64,000 nt of DNA from Escherichia coli (lineage in GTDB: Bacteria; Pseudomonadota; Gammaproteobacteria; Enterobacterales; Enterobacteriaceae): NCBI RefSeq assembly GCF_041886205.1, contig NZ_CP169029.1; one strand, given 5' to 3'. The position numbers were made by a program, and so were the translations under genes. The first letter of the stretch is position 1. Every line of letters begins with the position of its first letter. The notes under the pieces are model-generated. The model saw only the letters and a program-made list of their open reading frames with translations, did not search any database and was not told the DNA's origin. Positions 1,060 to 51,623 of this stretch are shown here, piece by piece.

Positions 1060-3303
1060 TTAGAAACGGAAGGTTGCGGTTGCAACGACCTGACGTTCTG
1101 CGCCCCAGAAGCAGCCATAAGTGTTAAAGCAGCTGGCGACGTATTCACGATCGAACAGGTTGTTGACATGCAGCGCCACGTTGGAGCCCGCCATGCCGAC
1201 TCGCGCCAGATCATAACGCACTAACGCATCCACGACCGTATAACTTCCCACTTTAAAGGAGTTAGCCGGATCACCATAGCTGGAGCCAGTATAACGACCA
1301 CCGGTGCCCAGCGTCAGACCTGAAAGTGGACCGTCAAAGAAGGTATAGTCAGCCCACAGCGAAGCCATGTGTTTTGGCACCTGTGCAGGCGTATTTCCTT
1401 TGTAGTTGGTGTCAGTGGTGTATTCCGCGTCGGTGTAGGTGTAAGAACCGACTACGTTAACACTCGCCGATAGTGCCGCTTTCGCTTCCAGCTCTACGCC
1501 ACGCGCACGAATCTCACCGCCTTCAACCGAGAAGAAGGAACCCTCAGGGTCCGCCATCAGGTTGTTGGTTTTAGTGAGATTATACACGGCACCAGTAACT
1601 ACAATCGGACGATCTTCCGGTACATATTTCACACCGACTTCATACTGCTTACCCTTAGACGGTGCGAAAATATTACCATCCTTCCCAACTTGCGAAGAAG
1701 GTTCAAACGATTCGCTATAGCTAAAGTAAGGTGTTACGCCATTATCAAACAGGTAGTTAACACCACCACGCCAGGTAAACTGTTTGTCATCACGTTTATC
1801 GGTCGTCCCGGCAACGCGGTTAAGAGATTCTTGATCTGCCCAGTCATAACGACCGCCCAGGGTTACCAGCACTTTATCCCACTGCGCCTGATCCTGAACA
1901 TAAACGCCCGTTTGTTTCTGTTTATTCAGAATGCGGTAAGGGCCGGAGTTTGCCGGATCTTTGGCATTGAAGTCGAAATCGGTATTCACCGGATTGTACA
2001 GATTGAGCAGTGGCACAGAGTCGTCGTAACCAAACCAGGCGTTGATGTCATTACGCATACGCATAAAGTCGACACCGGTCAACAGGGTGTGGTCGATATC
2101 GCCAGTGGCAAACTTGCTCTGCAACTGGGTATCAACGGAGAAGTTTTGCAGCTTCTCATCATCAACGACGTATTTACGTGCCAGATAATGGCCTTTATCC
2201 GCTGGCGCTAATGCCGCACACTGTTTGCTGTAAGCATTCGCCGGATCGGAGCAGACGCCGTAACCATAAACGCTGTTTTGCGAGGTTTTGTTTTCAGCAA
2301 AGCGCAGGTTCTGACGCACAGTAAAGGTGTCGTTAAATTCGTGATCGAAGCTGTAGCCGACCATCTTCTCATTACGAGAATAGGTGTTGTTCTTCGCCCC
2401 TTCATTAAAGTCTGTCGGCAGACGCTTACCGTTCGGCAGCGGCTCAACGGTTCCCTCTTTCGGCAACCAGCCGTAATAACCGGTTTCCGGCTCGTTCTGG
2501 AAGTAAGAAAGGAAGGTGAAATTGGTTTTATCATCCGGACGCCAGGTGAACGCCGGTGCAATAGCATAACGCTGCTCTTCTGACCCTTTCTGCTGGGCAT
2601 TGGCAGAACGCGCAAGACCGGTCAGGCGATAAGAGTAAACGCCGTCATCATCCAGCGCATCGCTAAAGTCAAAACCAGTCTGGAACAGGCTGTCAGTACC
2701 GGCTTTAAACTGAACTTCTTTGAGCGGTTCGGTGGTCGGACGCTTGCTGACCATATTCAACAGACCGCCAGGACTACTTTTACCGTAAAGCACGGAAACC
2801 GGGCCACGCATAATTTCAGCGCGTTCCAGCATATACGGATCAATGACCGCATCGTTATAGAAGTTGCCCTGCAACTTCAGGCCATTCAGATAGTTATTCT
2901 GGCTTTGGCCTTCTGCCGCAAAACCGCGAATGATCAGGTGGTCATAGGTGTTGGATGCGCCACGCGTACCAACAGAGACACCCGGCGTGTAGCTAAGCGC
3001 TTCTTTTACCGACTTCGGCTGATGCAGCGCCATCTCTTCGGCGGTCACAACAGAAATAGACTGTGGCACTTTTTGAATCGGCGTATCGGTTTTAGTGCCG
3101 GTAGCTGACTGTCGCGCCGCAATAGTTGCAGCAGGCCCCCATGCGCTTTCTTGCGGCGCAGGTGCAGCGGTAACGGTGATAGTGTCTTCTTTCGGTTCAA
3201 CCGCTGCCTGTGCATAAACAGACATGCCGCTAACCGCTGTGGCTACTACAACTGCGATTTTACGCAGTGAGTGTTTTGGCTGAGCAGTTTTGGAACGCGC
3301 CAT
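1060..3303 (-). CDS. fhuA: Ferrichrome outer-membrane TonB-dependent receptor FhuA
   Basis: 747-aa ORF with signal peptide, TonB box region and C-terminal beta-barrel ending ATFRF; length matches FhuA. Confidence 0.96.
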   Translation of the reverse strand: MARSKTAQPKHSLRKIAVVVATAVSGMSVYAQAAVEPKEDTITVTAAPAPQESAWGPAATIAARQSATGTKTDTPIQKVPQSISVVTAEEMALHQPKSVKEALSYTPGVSVGTRGASNTYDHLIIRGFAAEGQSQNNYLNGLKLQGNFYNDAVIDPYMLERAEIMRGPVSVLYGKSSPGGLLNMVSKRPTTEPLKEVQFKAGTDSLFQTGFDFSDALDDDGVYSYRLTGLARSANAQQKGSEEQRYAIAPAFTWRPDDKTNFTFLSYFQNEPETGYYGWLPKEGTVEPLPNGKRLPTDFNEGAKNNTYSRNEKMVGYSFDHEFNDTFTVRQNLRFAENKTSQNSVYGYGVCSDPANAYSKQCAALAPADKGHYLARKYVVDDEKLQNFSVDTQLQSKFATGDIDHTLLTGVDFMRMRNDINAWFGYDDSVPLLNLYNPVNTDFDFNAKDPANSGPYRILNKQKQTGVYVQDQAQWDKVLVTLGGRYDWADQESLNRVAGTTDKRDDKQFTWRGGVNYLFDNGVTPYFSYSESFEPSSQVGKDGNIFAPSKGKQYEVGVKYVPEDRPIVVTGAVYNLTKTNNLMADPEGSFFSVEGGEIRARGVELEAKAALSASVNVVGSYTYTDAEYTTDTNYKGNTPAQVPKHMASLWADYTFFDGPLSGLTLGTGGRYTGSSYGDPANSFKVGSYTVVDALVRYDLARVGMAGSNVALHVNNLFDREYVASCFNTYGCFWGAERQVVATATFRF

Positions 3304-3522: not shown

Positions 3523-6057
3523 TTAATTACTACCAAACATATCTTTAATCCAACCGGCTACACCGTCGCTGTCTTTCTGCTCTTGCTGAGCAGGTTGCTG
3601 TTGCGGCTGTTGCTGCGGCTGAGAAGACTGATCAAACGGATTGCTTGACGGCTGCTGCTGCATCTCACTCTGCTGGCACAGCGATTGCGGATCGCTGGTC
3701 CAGACCGGCAAGACACGCATGCCACCGCTGCAAACAAAGTTGCCGTCGTAGTCCACGCCCATATCTGCAATATCTTCTGGCGGAACAAGATTCAGCGGTG
3801 TTGGCGTCTGGTTAGCCAGATAACGCTGATAAATCGACATTGCCCCGCTGGCTCCATACAGTTTGGTCGGCTGGTTGTTATCACGGCCTACCCAGGTGAT
3901 GGTCACCGTGCTGCCGTCAATGCCCGCAAACCAGGTATCTACGTTATTGTTAGTAGTCCCTGTTTTCCCTGCCAGATGCAGGTTCGGGTATTTCGCCCCA
4001 AGCTGACGACCCGTACCGCGTTGTACCACCTGCTGCATGGTCCATAGTGTCAGATACGCCGCCTGCGCCGGAACAGCGCGTTCCGCCTGCGGGAAGCTCT
4101 GATACAGCACTTTGCCATCTTCCGCGATTACCGAACGCAGCGCAGAAAGCGGTGCACGGTTACCGCCGCTGGCGATGGTCTGGAATGCCTGCGCCACTTC
4201 GATTGGCGTTAAGTTCAACGCCCCCAGCAGCATCGCCGGAACCGGATGCAGCTGATCTTTCGGCACGCCCAGTTTGATCCAGGTCTCCGTAACCGCAGGC
4301 AGCCCCAGTGCCATCCCCAGATTTACCGTCGGCACGTTCATCGAACGGGTCAACGCATCCACCAGCATCACTCTGCCACTTTCGCTATAACGACGATCAT
4401 CGTTCTGCGGTGACCAGACCTGGCCATTCGGCTGACGCAGCGCGATTGGCGCATCCGCAATCCACGTGTTCAGGCGATAGATTTTCGGCTGGCTTAAGGC
4501 AGTCAGATAAGTCGCTGGTTTTGCAAGGGAACCAATCGAACGACGCGCCTGCATCGCACGGTTGTAGCCCGCAAACTGCGGCTCAGAACCTCCGACCATC
4601 GCACGAACTTCACCACTAAAGCGGTCGACGACCACAATCGCGGTTTCCAGATCGCTCAGCTTACGCTGTTTCTTCAGTGCCGGAATGCCTTCCACGGCGG
4701 CTTTTTCTGCCGCGTCCTGGGCCACCGAGTCAAAGGTAGTGAAGATCTTCACGCCGGACAGATCTTTTACCTTATCGCCTAATTTCTCCTGCAACTCCTG
4801 ACGCACCAGTTGCATAAAGGCTGGCTGTGGAGAGATTACCCCACCGCGCGGCTGTACGCCCAGAGGACGCGCGCTGAGCATTTCATACAGTTCACCATCG
4901 ATAATCTGCTGTTGTTGTAGCAAACGCAGCACCAGATTACGTCGCTCCAGCGCCAGTTTCGGGTTACGCCACGGGTTGTAGATGGACGCCCCTTTCACCA
5001 TGCCAACTAACAGCGCCTGCTGGTCAAGGCTCAACTCTTCTACCGGGCGACCAAAGTAGTACAGGCTCGCCAGCGGGAAGCCACGAATTTCGTTGTCGCC
5101 GCTCTGACCGAGATACACCTCATTCATATACAGCTCAAGAATGCGATCTTTGCTGTAACGCGCATCCATGATCAACGCCATATAGGCTTCGTTCGCTTTA
5201 CGCCAGTAAGAGCGCTCGCTGGAGAGGAACAGGTTTTTCACCAGCTGTTGCGTCAGCGTACTCGCACCCTGCACCGTGCGACCTGCGGTCAGGTTTGCCA
5301 GCACCGCACGTCCGATGGAGTAGAGACTGATTCCATCATGCTCGTAGAAATGGCGGTCTTCTGTCGCCAGCAAAGTATCCACCAGCAAATCCGGGAAACC
5401 ACTGCGCGGCACAAACAAACGCTGCTCACCGTTTGGTGAGGAGATCATGGTGATCAGGCGCGGATCAAGACGGAAGAAACCGAACTGACGGTTGTTCTCC
5501 ATATTGACGATCGTCGCCAGATGATCGCCATCAAAGGTCAGACGCGCGCGCACCTGTCCTTCTTTACTGTCCGGGAAATCAAACGGACGGCGAATCATCT
5601 CAATGCTGTTGGCCTGCACGGTAAATTCGCCAGGACGGGTCATTTTTGACACCTGACGATACTGGGTTGCCTCCAGCAGCTTCACCATCTCGTTCTTGCT
5701 GATGGTCATGTCTGGCTCAAGGTTGACCATTCGGCCATAAACTGCCGCAGGCAGTTGCCAGACCTTGCCATCAATACGGCTGCGAATTTTTTGATCGAGA
5801 TAAACGCCGTAAATGGCGATCAGCACGGCAAAAACGATAGCCAGTTTTAACAGCAGCCATAGCCAGCCGCGTTTGCCACGAGGCTTACGCCCTTTGCCTT
5901 TGCCCTTACCTTTGCGCGGCATCGGTTCTTCATCCTCATAGTCATCATAATCGTCGTAATCATCGTCATCTTCGTAACGACGACGGCTTACCTTTTGTTT
6001 GACCGGACGCGTCGGTTTCCCTTTGCGTCCAATTGGCTCGCGGTCATTCCCGGCCAT
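3523..6057 (-). CDS. mrcB: Penicillin-binding protein 1B (bifunctional glycosyltransferase/transpeptidase)
   Basis: ORF 3523..6072; start refined to [10 protein letters not shown] (cat at 6055-6057); acidic [15 protein letters not shown] tract then TM segment; 844 aa. Confidence 0.95.
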
Positions 6058-6152
6058 GCTTTTTCTCCGCAATATTCAGGCGCAAAAGCCCGATTTTCTG
6101 TTCTTCTGTTACAAGACAGAAGAAGATATCTCTCAAAATTTGTGCTCGATCG

Positions 6153-6239
6153 GTCCCCTCTCCCTTAAGGGAGAGGGTTAGGGTGAGGGTGAACGTGCGC
6201 GCTGATGCCCTCACCCCGGCCCTCTCCCACAGGGAGAGG
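6153..6239. repeat. GC-rich intergenic repeat with three nested hairpins (ccctctccc/gggagaggg twice, flanking gggtgaggg/ccctcaccc); boxC-like
   Basis: Inverted repeats read directly from sequence between hrpB stop and mrcB start; family name from memory. Confidence 0.5.
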
Positions 6240-6252
6240 GAGAAAACCAACC

Positions 6253-8682
6253 TTACGAATACTTTTTCGTCCGTCGCGTCGGTGCCGTGTTTGCCGGGTC
6301 GTCCGGCCAGACATGTTTGGGATAACGCCCTTTCATCTCTTTTTGCACCTCACGGTACGCTCCTTTCCAGAAGGCGCTCAAATCTCGTGTGATTTGTAAT
6401 GGCCTTTGGGCAGGGGAAAGCAACTCCAGCACCAGCGGCACGCGCCCCTGGGCGATCGTCGGATTGGTGGCCTCACCAAACATCTCCTGCATTCTCACCG
6501 CCAGCGCGGGCGGGTTATCTTCATGATAACGAATGGCGATCCGGCTTCCCGTCGGCACAGTGTAATGCGCAGGCAATTCACTATCCAGACGTTGCTGCAT
6601 TCCCCAATCAAGTAATCCGCGTAGTGCCTGATAAATGTCGAGTGATTTCAGGCCGCGTAGTGAATGCACGCCGGTCATATGTGGCAGCAGCCACGTTTCC
6701 AGCGTCGCCAACAAACTTTCATTATCAACCGCAGGCCAGTCATATTCCGGCAACCACTTTGCGGCGCATAACAAACGCAAGCGTAGCTGTTCCGCTTCCG
6801 CCGTCCAGTTGAGCACGCTTAAACCTTTATCACTAATGCCGTTAAGCATCGCCTGATGCAACTCGTCTTCTGACGGTTTCGCCAGTGGCTGCACTTTCAC
6901 CGTCAGCTGACCGATTTGCAGCCGACGCCAGGCTTTCAGCGTACCTTGCGCGTCATCCCACTCCACAGTGTCAGACTGCTGTACCAGCTGCGGGCAGCGT
7001 TGTACTAACTCATCAATATCGACCGGCAGCGCCAGTAAAATCCGCGCATCCGGCGAGGCGCTGCCCTGCAATAATAACGGTGCGATCAACCATTCGTGGC
7101 GGCTTAGCGCATCGTCGGCATCGAGCATCGCTCCCATGCCGTTTGCCAGTTGATAGCGTCCATCTTGCCCACGGCGATGAGCAATGCGATCGGCAAACGC
7201 CCCGGCAAGTAGCGGCGCGATAAGCGAACTGTCTGCCTCTCCGCCGCGTACGTTTAAGCGTTTTAACAGTTGCTGACTACGTTGCTGCCAGGCTGGTTGA
7301 TTGCGCGAAAACGCCACGCCCAGGTCACTATTGCCCATCCGTGGCGGCTCTTCGAGAATGGCGGCAATTTTTGCCGCGGTAGCAGCTTCGTCGTCGTTCT
7401 TTGCGCTAACCAGCATTGCCGCTAAACGCGGATCGTTACCCAGCGCTGCCATTTTTTGCCCCTGCGCACTAAGCCGTTCACCGTCCAGCGCCCCCAGCAT
7501 CTTTAACAGGCGTTTCGCGGCCAGTAAATTCACTGCTGGCGGTTGATCCAGCCAGCTCATCTGCGCCGGATCGCTGCATCCCCATTGCAGTAATTCCATC
7601 AGCAAACCGGAAAGATCGCTTTGTAAGATCTCCGGTTCACTTTGCGCGGCAGCGCGTTCTGCTTGTTCTTTGGCGATTAAATGCAGGCTGATACCCGGCT
7701 CCAGACGCCCGGCGCGCCCGGCACGCTGCGTCATCGACGCCTGACTGATTCGCTGAGTAATCAACCGCGTAAGCCCTGTTCGCGGATCAAAACGCGCCAC
7801 CCTTTCCTGGGCACAATCCACCACCAGACGAATACCTTCGATGGTTAAACTGGTTTCAGCAATATTGGTCGCCAGCACCACTTTGCGCATCCCTTGCGGT
7901 GCCGGAAGGATCGCTTTTCGCTGATCGTTCAGCGACAACGCGCCATACAGCGGGCAGAGCAACACATCACTGCCGATACGCGAAGCCAGTTGTTCCTGCA
8001 CACGCTGAATTTCTCCGACGCCTGGTAAAAATAACAGTAATGATCCACTTTCCTGACGCAGCATTTCAGCGGTGGCTACCGCAACGGCTTCGTCAAAACG
8101 CTGATGCGCGGGCAGCGGTAAATAACGGCGTTCAACCGGAAACGAGCGCCCTTCTGAGATGACGACGGGCGCTTCTGGTAGCATTTGTTGCAAGCGGTCG
8201 TTGTCCAGCGTAGCCGACATAATCAGCAGTTTAAGGTCATCACGCAGACCTTGTTGCACATCGAGTAACAGCGCCAACGCCAAATCCGCCTGCAAGCTAC
8301 GCTCATGAAATTCATCAAGGATCACCAATCCAACACCGCTCAACTCCGGGTCACGCTGGATCATCCGCGTCAGCACGCCTTCGGTAACTACTTCCAGGCG
8401 GGTATTCGGCCCGACGCAGTTTTGCGCACGCATCCGGTAGCCAACGGTATCGCCTGGCTTTTCGTTAAGCAGCTCCGCCAGCCGTTGCGCGACGTTACGC
8501 GCCGCCAGACGACGCGGCTCCAGCAGGATAATTTTCCCGTTAATGCCGGGATGCGCCAGCAGTTGCAGCGGCAGCCAGGTTGATTTCCCGGCCCCGGTCG
8601 GCGCACTTAATAATACCTGCGGCGCATAATCGAGAGCGGTAAGTAATTCAGGTAAGACGGCAGCAACGGGCAACGACGACAC
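6253..8682 (-). CDS. hrpB: ATP-dependent DEAH-box RNA helicase HrpB
   Basis: ORF 6253..8727; start refined to GTG at 8680-8682 giving MSSLPVAAVLPELL and 809 aa; helicase motifs APTGAGKST, DEFH, SATL. Confidence 0.92.
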   Translation of the reverse strand: MSSLPVAAVLPELLTALDYAPQVLLSAPTGAGKSTWLPLQLLAHPGINGKIILLEPRRLAARNVAQRLAELLNEKPGDTVGYRMRAQNCVGPNTRLEVVTEGVLTRMIQRDPELSGVGLVILDEFHERSLQADLALALLLDVQQGLRDDLKLLIMSATLDNDRLQQMLPEAPVVISEGRSFPVERRYLPLPAHQRFDEAVAVATAEMLRQESGSLLLFLPGVGEIQRVQEQLASRIGSDVLLCPLYGALSLNDQRKAILPAPQGMRKVVLATNIAETSLTIEGIRLVVDCAQERVARFDPRTGLTRLITQRISQASMTQRAGRAGRLEPGISLHLIAKEQAERAAAQSEPEILQSDLSGLLMELLQWGCSDPAQMSWLDQPPAVNLLAAKRLLKMLGALDGERLSAQGQKMAALGNDPRLAAMLVSAKNDDEAATAAKIAAILEEPPRMGNSDLGVAFSRNQPAWQQRSQQLLKRLNVRGGEADSSLIAPLLAGAFADRIAHRRGQDGRYQLANGMGAMLDADDALSRHEWLIAPLLLQGSASPDARILLALPVDIDELVQRCPQLVQQSDTVEWDDAQGTLKAWRRLQIGQLTVKVQPLAKPSEDELHQAMLNGISDKGLSVLNWTAEAEQLRLRLLCAAKWLPEYDWPAVDNESLLATLETWLLPHMTGVHSLRGLKSLDIYQALRGLLDWGMQQRLDSELPAHYTVPTGSRIAIRYHEDNPPALAVRMQEMFGEATNPTIAQGRVPLVLELLSPAQRPLQITRDLSAFWKGAYREVQKEMKGRYPKHVWPDDPANTAPTRRTKKYS

Positions 8683-43039: not shown

Positions 43040-43135
43040 AGGCCGCAGCGGCGTTAGCTTCACGCCCTCACCCCAGTCACTTACTTATGTAAGCTCCTGG
43101 GGATTCTGGCGCTTGCTACCTTGCTGCACCCAGAA
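43040..43135. repeat. ERIC/IRU element (inverse orientation relative to the panC copy) between aceF and lpd
   Basis: CCCTCACCCCAGTCACTTACTTATGTAAGCTCCTGGGGATTC is the reverse complement of the ERIC core. Confidence 0.8.
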
Positions 43136-50732: not shown

Positions 50733-50762
50733 TACGCCCTCACCCGTACAGGGTGAGGGCAA
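50733..50762. terminator. Bidirectional terminator hairpin between convergent aroP and ampE (gccctcaccc/gggtgagggc)
   Basis: 10-bp stem, 5-nt loop read from sequence. Confidence 0.65.
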
Positions 50763-50768
50763 TAATCT

Positions 50769-51623
50769 TTACACCAACGCCCCGTAAATCGTCAGTAGTG
50801 CAATCACCACCACGACCACGAACGAGGTTTTCTTCGCCATTGAAACCGCTGCCTTCGGCGTCTCCACCTTATCGACATGCGGTTCACGCGCCAGAGAGAA
50901 CTGCGCCAGACGCGTTAACACCTGATACTGCGAAGTATGGAAATCACCCAGCGAAGCAAACCAGGCCGGTAACGCTTTCTCACCATGACCGATCAAGGCA
51001 TATACCACACCCGCAAGACGAACCGGCACCCAATCCAGTACATGAAGCACGGCATCAATGCCGGACTGTAAACGATGATGCGGCGTCTGATATCGCGCCA
51101 GCCAGTATTGCCATGCACGCAAAAACGCATACCCCATCAGCGTAACGGGTCCCCAGGTTCCCCCCACAATCAGCCAGAACAGCGGTGCAAGATAAAAACG
51201 AAAGTTAATCCACAGCAATGCATTTTGCAGCTCACGCAAATACTCACGTTCGTCGCAGCCTGCCGGGACGCCGTGAATCATGGTGAGTTCGCCAGCCATC
51301 GTGGCACGGGCATGGCTATCATTACGTGAAGCAGCTGTCAGATAAGCATGATAATGAAGACGAACTTTACCTGCGCCAATACACAGCAAACCAATCAGCA
51401 GCCACACCAGTAGCGTGGGAACGTTGAACAATACTCCCTGCAATGCGCGTAACAGTAAAAAAGTCACGCCCATCGCAATAATGGTCATGCCTAACGTGCG
51501 CCCGAGAGAAAAATGTTTCACCCGCCGAAAGAACGCTTCAAGACGATGATCAAGCTGCCAGTGCTCGCCCAACTTAAACAGGCGCTCGAAAATTAACACC
51601 AGTAAGGTTGTAAATAGCGTCAT
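50769..51623 (-). CDS. ampE: Inner-membrane protein AmpE
   Basis: ORF 50769..51662; start refined to [15 protein letters not shown] (cat 51621-51623), overlapping ampD stop; 284 aa. Confidence 0.92.

Follow-up and report, generated by a model that had tools for sequence, protein, structure and literature searches.

The spacer between hrpB and mrcB in the Escherichia coli chromosome, 195 bp in length, contains a GC-rich triple-hairpin element, and the locus raises the question of what this element is and whether it acts on the transcripts that run through it. The window, by which we mean the whole analysed stretch of 64,000 nucleotides, carries fhuA (1060-3303), mrcB (3523-6057) and hrpB (6253-8682), all three on the minus strand according to the ORF list and the annotation of a K-12-like record. 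The element occupies positions 6156-6240; on the transcript it starts 12 nt downstream of the hrpB stop codon TAA (6253-6255, minus strand) and is followed, 98 nt further downstream, by the mrcB start codon ATG (6055-6057, minus strand). The MG1655 RefSeq record has nothing annotated at the position of the element.

The element is made up of six 9-mers of the CCCTCNCCC / GGGNGAGGG type. In outer hairpin 1 (6156-6177) the inverted-repeat scan pairs CCCTCTCCC (6156-6164) with GGGAGAGGG (6169-6177) to a perfect 9-bp stem closed by the loop TTAA. Outer hairpin 2 (6220-6240) possesses the same 9-bp stem, formed by CCCTCTCCC (6220-6228) and GGGAGAGGG (6232-6240), around the loop ACA. The central hairpin (6181-6216), found by the same scan and by pattern matches, has the arms GGGTGAGGG (6181-6189) and CCCTCACCC (6208-6216), which enclose 18 nt. 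The triple hairpin that the earlier note had described is thus real: the six 9-mers lie within one to three bases of the positions it gave, and each 9-mer occurs five times where 0.2 to 0.3 occurrences are expected (pattern counts), which is far beyond chance. The overall dyad symmetry which the note had also claimed is reflected in 21-nt arms that are 86% complementary (inverted-repeat scan), and its description of two identical hairpins applies to the outer stems but not to their loops, which differ.

Folding of the minus-strand RNA, put forward as a check in the earlier note, predicts for region 6140-6255 a strong structure of -73.6 kcal/mol compared with -43.5 +/- 3.9 kcal/mol for shuffled sequences (z -7.65, with none of 200 shuffles reaching a fold as good). 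A fold with three local hairpins is feasible at -53.5 to -59.6 kcal/mol, while the more stable, minimum-energy fold is one single long hairpin. Open reading frames overlapping the element were rejected as by-products of the palindrome. Rfam holds no curated family for it; what it returns are sub-threshold miRNA-precursor matches to a generic long GC hairpin, and whalefall-1 scores 17 bits against a gathering score of 37.

The arrangement of the 9-mers reveals the identity of the element. They form two units of three blocks, both of which fit the consensus CCCTCNCCC-N3-6-GGGNGAGGG-N3-GGGNGAGGG exactly, one at 6156-6189 on the plus strand and the other at 6240-6208 on the minus strand. This three-block BoxC/TMECO pattern is found twice in the window versus 0.00 times expected from 100 shuffles, which excludes chance. 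The type A unit (6156-6190, plus strand), an exact consensus match, reads CCCTCTCCC-TTAA-GGGAGAGGG-TTA-GGGTGAGGG-T with its linker TTA at 6178-6180, and the type B unit (6207-6240, minus strand), found as a consensus pattern match, reads CCCTCTCCC-TGT-GGGAGAGGG-CCG-GGGTGAGGG-C with its linker CCG at 6219-6217 of the minus strand. The two units face each other with their G-rich ends pointing inward across a spacer of 16 nt (GAACGTGCGCGCTGAT, 6191-6206), which constitutes the loop of the central hairpin. With nhmmer, a profile built on all 23 K-12 units recognises type A with E=6e-9 and type B with E=2e-7, and within the 64-kb window it gives significant E-values at these two units only.

Repeats of this kind have been described as BoxC (Bergler 1992; Bachellier 1999), as PIT elements (Hoyne et al. 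2000; Hoyne & Maher 2002) and as TMECO triplex motifs (Holder et al. 2015, PMC4666352). The present locus itself appears in Table 1 of Holder et al. 2015 as TMECO no. 1 (type B, MG1655 164547-164580) and TMECO no. 2 (type A, 164631-164597). Our type B unit is identical to TMECO no. 1 and our type A unit deviates from TMECO no. 2 by one loop base (TTAA here, TTGA in K-12), this being the one base that differs in an otherwise gap-free alignment of the window with K-12 across the locus. Kaplan et al. 2016 (PMC5100583) list the same site between hrpB and mrcB as HPG1-6/HPG2-5, among putative G-quadruplex/hairpin switches. Hence the element, its family, its pairing rule and the very locus are already known, under four names. 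We conclude with high confidence that the hrpB-mrcB element is a composite BoxC repeat, that is, one copy of a dispersed intergenic family which was inserted in Escherichia and which is dispensable and structurally unstable there. The suspicion of a "boxC-like" repeat family in the earlier note was correct, as attested by the consensus match, the profile E-values and the many copies of conserved architecture.

As to these copies, a 96-nt query finds the family in 5408 of 5426 complete E. coli genomes, at a median of 20 places per genome and with a range of 1 to 38. Nearly all of the places (99671 of 99754) are chromosomal and 83 are on plasmids. For K-12, Holder et al. 2015 (PMC4666352) report 23 units, with an inverted A+B pair at five loci. 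The genome-wide search suggested in the earlier note therefore reveals a family with further copies of conserved architecture and clearly not the case, considered there as fatal to a repeat family, of a structure confined to one locus.

Over about 120 bp the hrpB-mrcB copy can be aligned with the K-12 pairs at fepB-entC, ygfF-gcvP and alx-sstT, which display the same A-spacer-B layout, while the lldD-trmL pair of K-12 shows the reversed arrangement. Shared by the four aligned pairs are the flank GTGCTCGATCAGTC on the A side, a spacer of the form GAACAGGCCAGCACTGGTGCGAA.ATT and AGAAAA on the B side. In the window the outer flank on the type A side (6142-6155, plus strand) reads GTGCTCGATCGGTC, in agreement with the K-12 composites, and that on the type B side (6241-6246) is the conserved AGAAAA, so that conservation at the family level extends from about 6142 to 6246, slightly past the limits drawn for the element before. 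The spacer of the hrpB-mrcB copy is 11 nt shorter than that of the three pairs aligned with it.

The paired pattern is by no means restricted to E. coli. Searching species genomes, with one genome per species, retrieves at least 120 loci, a number which conveys breadth and is not a census. The matches listed all lie outside Enterobacteriaceae, a family which the listing does not reach, in Beta-, Alpha- and Gammaproteobacteria and a few non-proteobacterial MAGs, and include Pseudomonas, Rhodoferax, Polaromonas, Hydrogenophaga, Sphingomonas, Hyphomicrobiaceae, Azospirillum and Bradyrhizobium. Across many of these proteobacteria and a few other phyla the three-hairpin A-spacer-B architecture is nearly unchanged among the matches listed. 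Among the same matches, the counts being non-independent because many copies come from one genome, a CNG linker is present in one of 38 units flanked by GTCCCC versus 43 of 87 units flanked by CT or TT, and pairs in which both units carry the TC (GTCCCC) outer flank, i.e. combinations of A-type with A-type, are rare (2 of 78, likewise non-independent). Among the cross-species matches listed, it seems to be a conserved feature that units with the outer flank GTCCCC carry a TTA-type linker. In the Rhodoferax MAG RYN_565 we observed at least 19 near-identical copies, in most of which a larger palindromic repeat, about 215 bp long and with the arms ..GGATACCGGACGCGTCGCTGCGCTGGCTACCG.. and their complement, encloses the BoxC-like core.

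The earlier note had extended the family to two further sites of the window since they share the hairpin arm. A pattern search indeed recovers GGGTGAGGG at 50737-50759, in both arms of the hairpin between aroP and ampE, and at 43065-43073, so that the recurrence as such is genuine. The membership in one family that was derived from it is not supported. The aroP/ampE hairpin, GCCCTCACCC-GTACA-GGGTGAGGGC, was rejected as a BoxC member as it comprises the first two blocks only, has neither a third block nor the flanks of the family and obtains E=1.3 with the nhmmer profile. It is found at one place per genome, matches over its entire length in 5368 of 5426 E. coli genomes and is essentially invariant. 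In aroP direction this hairpin (50736-50770) passes the scan for terminator-like sites with a 10-bp stem and the tail AATAATCTTT, whereas the BoxC pair does not pass it; Adams et al. 2021 list no Term-seq 3' end for the aroP/ampE hairpin. The 9-mer at 43065-43073 was likewise rejected, with E=25 and nothing resembling BoxC beyond the 9-mer. It is part of an ERIC (IRU) copy: the minus-strand sequence of 43065-43086, AAGTAAGTGACTGGGGTGAGGG, equals the ERIC2 primer AAGTAAGTGACTGGGGTGAGCG except for one C->G change, and due to this match with a single mismatch the 9-mer has to be regarded as ERIC's own end, namely its terminal consensus (..ACTGGGGTGAGCG) with one substitution. As far as can be judged from the sequences, nothing speaks in favour of a common origin of the aroP/ampE hairpin or the ERIC edge with BoxC, and neither is a detectable family member. 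A second match to the ERIC2 consensus, AAGTAAGTGACTGGGGTTAGCG, with one mismatch is present at 22887-22908; the window therefore probably contains another ERIC copy.

The history of the element can be read from its alleles. The locus is filled in 3535 of the 5426 E. coli genomes and 1884 (35%) show a short empty-site junction instead. The full pair is present in this window, in K-12 and in EDL933 (allele alignment), while in EC958 and AST240 the element is absent. The empty site of E. albertii equals that of EC958, down to a stop codon TGA in place of TAA, which identifies the empty state as ancestral. Strain E105 has lost 12 bp between adjacent G blocks, and the O111 strain 99.1145 has lost 64 bp between the direct copies of CCCTCTCCC, which leaves a single hairpin. 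In GF3-3 the whole pair is present in opposite orientation with the same short spacer; as this locus-specific spacer is retained, the GF3-3 copy suggests a flip in situ rather than a second insertion. E. marmotae harbours a decayed BoxC remnant after hrpB. In Citrobacter amalonaticus and C. freundii a REP (PU) element is found at exactly this position after the hrpB stop codon, so that different repeat families hold the spot in different genera. Upstream of mrcB, conservation between Escherichia and Citrobacter resumes at TTGAGAGAT(A/T)TCTTCTTCTGTC. Taken together, the alleles show that insertion took place within the genus Escherichia, directly behind the hrpB stop codon, and that the element is not needed at this site.

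Within the block conserved from Escherichia to Citrobacter, we noted a separate 9-bp inverted repeat, TTCTTCTGT-N6-ACAGAAGAA, at 6101-6124, i.e. 44-67 nt upstream of the mrcB ATG. The few substitutions in its 3' arm keep G-U pairing, and judging by its sequence this repeat may represent a leader or promoter structure of mrcB.

At other loci BoxC pairs vary as well. The alx-sstT pair of strain EC22 has undergone the same collapse between direct CCCTCTCCC copies to a solo hairpin, and the alternative alleles of this locus represent collapse or replacement by other sequence with no empty site among them. In strains MS 198-1 and BS-01 an unrelated GC-rich insert of about 300 bp takes the place of the alx-sstT pair or comes after it. 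At ygfF-gcvP a large share of E. coli genomes cease to be homologous some 35 bp away from the pair and do not have the ygfF side; the BoxC pair there forms the edge of a presence/absence region the flank of which is itself variable. A "palindrome effect" and instability of BoxC had been reported by Holder et al. 2015 (PMC4666352), with which our alleles agree.

An insertion that is polymorphic on an ancestral empty site (1884 genomes empty, 3535 filled; E. albertii) and a family whose copy number ranges from 1 to 38 places per genome bring to mind a non-autonomous mobile element. Accordingly, the pair could be of MITE or REPIN type, units A and B being its two different ends, and be mobilised as single-stranded DNA by an enzyme encoded by the host. 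This possibility, which we consider rather unlikely, fits the recurrence of the same two-ended architecture at several K-12 loci and in distant bacteria as well as the many near-identical copies in one Rhodoferax MAG. It is also in line with the near exclusion of the CNG linker by the GTCCCC flank and the rarity of pairs with two TC flanks among the matches listed, although these counts are not independent given the many copies per genome. Comparison of the empty, filled and flipped alleles at hrpB discloses no recognisable target-site duplication, and its lack is what one expects of HUH/Y1 systems (IS200/IS605, RAYT). The same comparison, however, reveals no clean insertion signature either: the junctions differ between the two orientations and are messy, with a 4-nt loss and microhomology. 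Moreover, only 83 of the 99754 places are on plasmids, and Holder et al. 2015 (PMC4666352) found no link of the family to transposons, phages or plasmids. The mobile-element reading is compatible with the explanation we prefer below, to which it adds active transposition.

A more specific form of it may be put forward tentatively, and we regard it as doubtful. The A-spacer-B composite would be a REPIN-like element with asymmetric ends, GTCCCC...TTA on one side and CTCCC...CNG...GAGAAAA on the other, and recognition of these ends by a widespread candidate ssDNA enzyme (HUH/Y1-type or similar) would be the reason for their conservation from E. coli to Pseudomonas, Rhodoferax and Sphingomonas. 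The hrpB copy would then be a datable insertion in Escherichia which later flipped in situ. We know of no transposase link and of no RAYT-type transposase or binding protein for BoxC.

The names TMECO and HPG stand for a different notion, namely that the DNA itself adopts a non-B structure, be it an intrastrand triplex of the purine motif (Hoyne/Maher; Holder et al. 2015, PMC4666352), a switch between G-quadruplex, hairpin and duplex (Kaplan et al. 2016, PMC5100583) or a cruciform, and that this structure regulates transcription or replication or yields useful variability. The three-block mirror arrangement does fit the triplex rule, the G-rich strand satisfies the G4 criteria, and in vitro a stable triplex was detected by CD and NMR for oligonucleotides of both types, A and B (Holder et al. 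2015, PMC4666352). The double-stranded form, however, gave no triplex signal and in vivo DMS footprinting no protection in the published work, which also found no link to the function of the neighbouring genes or to their distance. The variability of BoxC loci exceeds that of control intergenic regions, and the allelic series at hrpB-mrcB agrees with this, but slippage between the direct 9-mers and 12-mers accounts for this instability equally well. Considering in addition that the element is dispensable at hrpB-mrcB, we deem a DNA-level function of this kind very unlikely here.

It remains to be asked whether the element acts on RNA, as assumed in the earlier note, according to which the hairpins were recruited as terminators. 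The element would then terminate hrpB transcription and insulate mrcB. Its location 12 nt past the hrpB stop codon and the great stability of its RNA hairpin are what one would look for in a terminator, and hrpB and mrcB are separate units in RegulonDB-based tables. Taghavi et al. 2010 (PMC2869309) presumed such a role for the CCCTCTCCCxx(x)GGGAGAGGG repeats of Enterobacter sp. 638. The hairpin, however, is followed by GACCGAUCGAGCACAAAUUUUG and hence by no T/U run, and a scan of 5900-6500 for terminator-like sites and promoters yielded none on either strand. According to the account given in Holder et al. 2015 (PMC4666352), PIT/BoxC elements exhibited neither terminator nor promoter activity in the reporter assays of Hoyne & Maher 2002. 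Furthermore, 35% of the E. coli genomes have the same flanking genes without the element, and one BoxC pair is situated in the fepB leader and not at the 3' end of a gene.

Term-seq data bear directly on this issue. Adams et al. 2021 (supplementary files 1 and 3) list a K-12 RNA 3' end at MG1655 164636(+), reading ...GGGAGAGGGGACCG, whose equivalent in the window, mapped through the gap-free K-12 alignment, is position 6151 on the minus strand. On the transcript, the last G block precedes this end by 5 nt and the hrpB stop by 102 nt, and mrcB follows 94 nt later. At lldD an equivalent end, classed "primary", is located 4 nt past the same hairpin. An RNA 3' end at the foot of the hairpin, for which the earlier note had wished to consult such data, thus exists; it is, however, weak, with a score of 987 compared with 1e4 to 1e7 for others, is listed once across three growth-condition sheets, and does not separate termination from trimming. 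A terminator would release the RNA at ...GGGGACCG, a site which transcription would read through if the end arose from trimming. At eight of the 11 K-12 BoxC loci that we looked up in Adams et al. 2021 there is no Term-seq end at or just past the foot, which makes end protection by these hairpins opportunistic at best. The same study lists no Rho-termination region on the plus strand between 152 and 173 kb, although one may be concealed there by low expression; hrpB is not mentioned in the TERMITe 2025 tables. In view of the missing U-tract, the failed scan, the negative reporters and the majority of copies without a 3' end, the recruitment of the family as terminators finds little support, and we consider the terminator reading of the hrpB copy unlikely.

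At the fepB-entC pair (MG1655 624567-624680) we observed a strong Term-seq end (score 243213) 4 nt before the pair and another one 12 nt after it. The BoxC pair may affect the fepB leader transcript.

REP hairpins protect upstream mRNA against 3' exonucleases, and it appears more likely, from the weighing of the above observations, that the BoxC hairpin opportunistically defines a protected 3' end in a REP-like manner than that it terminates transcription. Because the element resides within the 3' untranslated region of hrpB, the transcript acquires an extremely stable hairpin. RNA of hrpB that has been read through, or that ends further downstream, would be trimmed by 3'-5' exonucleases back to the foot of this hairpin, and such trimming would give rise to the 3' end of K-12, weak but discrete, much as REP elements shield the mRNA upstream of them. 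The element would accordingly be a selfish or neutral structured repeat which persists without a dedicated function at the DNA level, providing a hairpin-protected hrpB 3' end and not a canonical intrinsic terminator. To this mechanism as a whole we assign an even chance. Neutrality in the strict sense does not easily account for how extremely the 9-mers and the A/B asymmetry are conserved among distant bacteria; this conservation suggests a conserved partner or a mobilising enzyme for BoxC.

As a finding the hrpB-mrcB element matters little, and the useful outcome is a negative one. It should be annotated as a BoxC pair and not as a new terminator family, with the aroP hairpin and the ERIC end kept out of the group. 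The spacer offers a clean natural series comprising the ancestral empty site, the full and the flipped pair, two slippage deletions, a decayed remnant and the REP element of Citrobacter, and the published 3' end at the hairpin foot makes an effect of BoxC on transcripts testable in filled versus empty strains, be they isogenic or natural.

Compared with known systems, the element resembles a Rho-independent terminator in that it is a GC-rich hairpin shortly after a stop codon, with a weak RNA 3' end mapped at its foot in K-12. In contrast to such terminators it has no U-tract, its stem-loop is far longer than typical, and the reporters of the family were negative. The palindromes of Enterobacter sp. 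638 described by Taghavi et al. 2010 (PMC2869309), which often occur in duplicate or triplicate at the 3' ends of genes and are presumed terminators, possess the same outer hairpin as the BoxC pair including the TGT/ACA loop; they belong to another genus, however, and were described as simple hairpins only. With REP/BIME elements and REPINs the BoxC pair has in common that these, too, are short GC-rich intergenic palindromes, often in inverted pairs which give a long hairpin, that they are frequent just after stop codons and polymorphic in presence, and that a REP element takes this very position in Citrobacter. Their sequences are nevertheless unrelated to BoxC, each unit of which consists of three blocks. 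ERIC copies, one of which contributes the 9-mer GGGTGAGGG near 43065-43086, show no other similarity to BoxC. The HPG1/HPG2 "G-quadruplex-hairpin-duplex switch" motifs (PMC5100583) are the same sequences, GGGAGAGGGTTAGGGTGAGGG and GGGAGAGGGCCGGGGTGAGGG, at the same site and differ from BoxC in the proposed structure alone, which is a G4 instead of a triplex or hairpin. With the BoxC/PIT/TMECO repeats, finally, the element shares sequence, locus, intergenic position and the inverted A+B layout, the loop base of the A unit being its sole difference from K-12.
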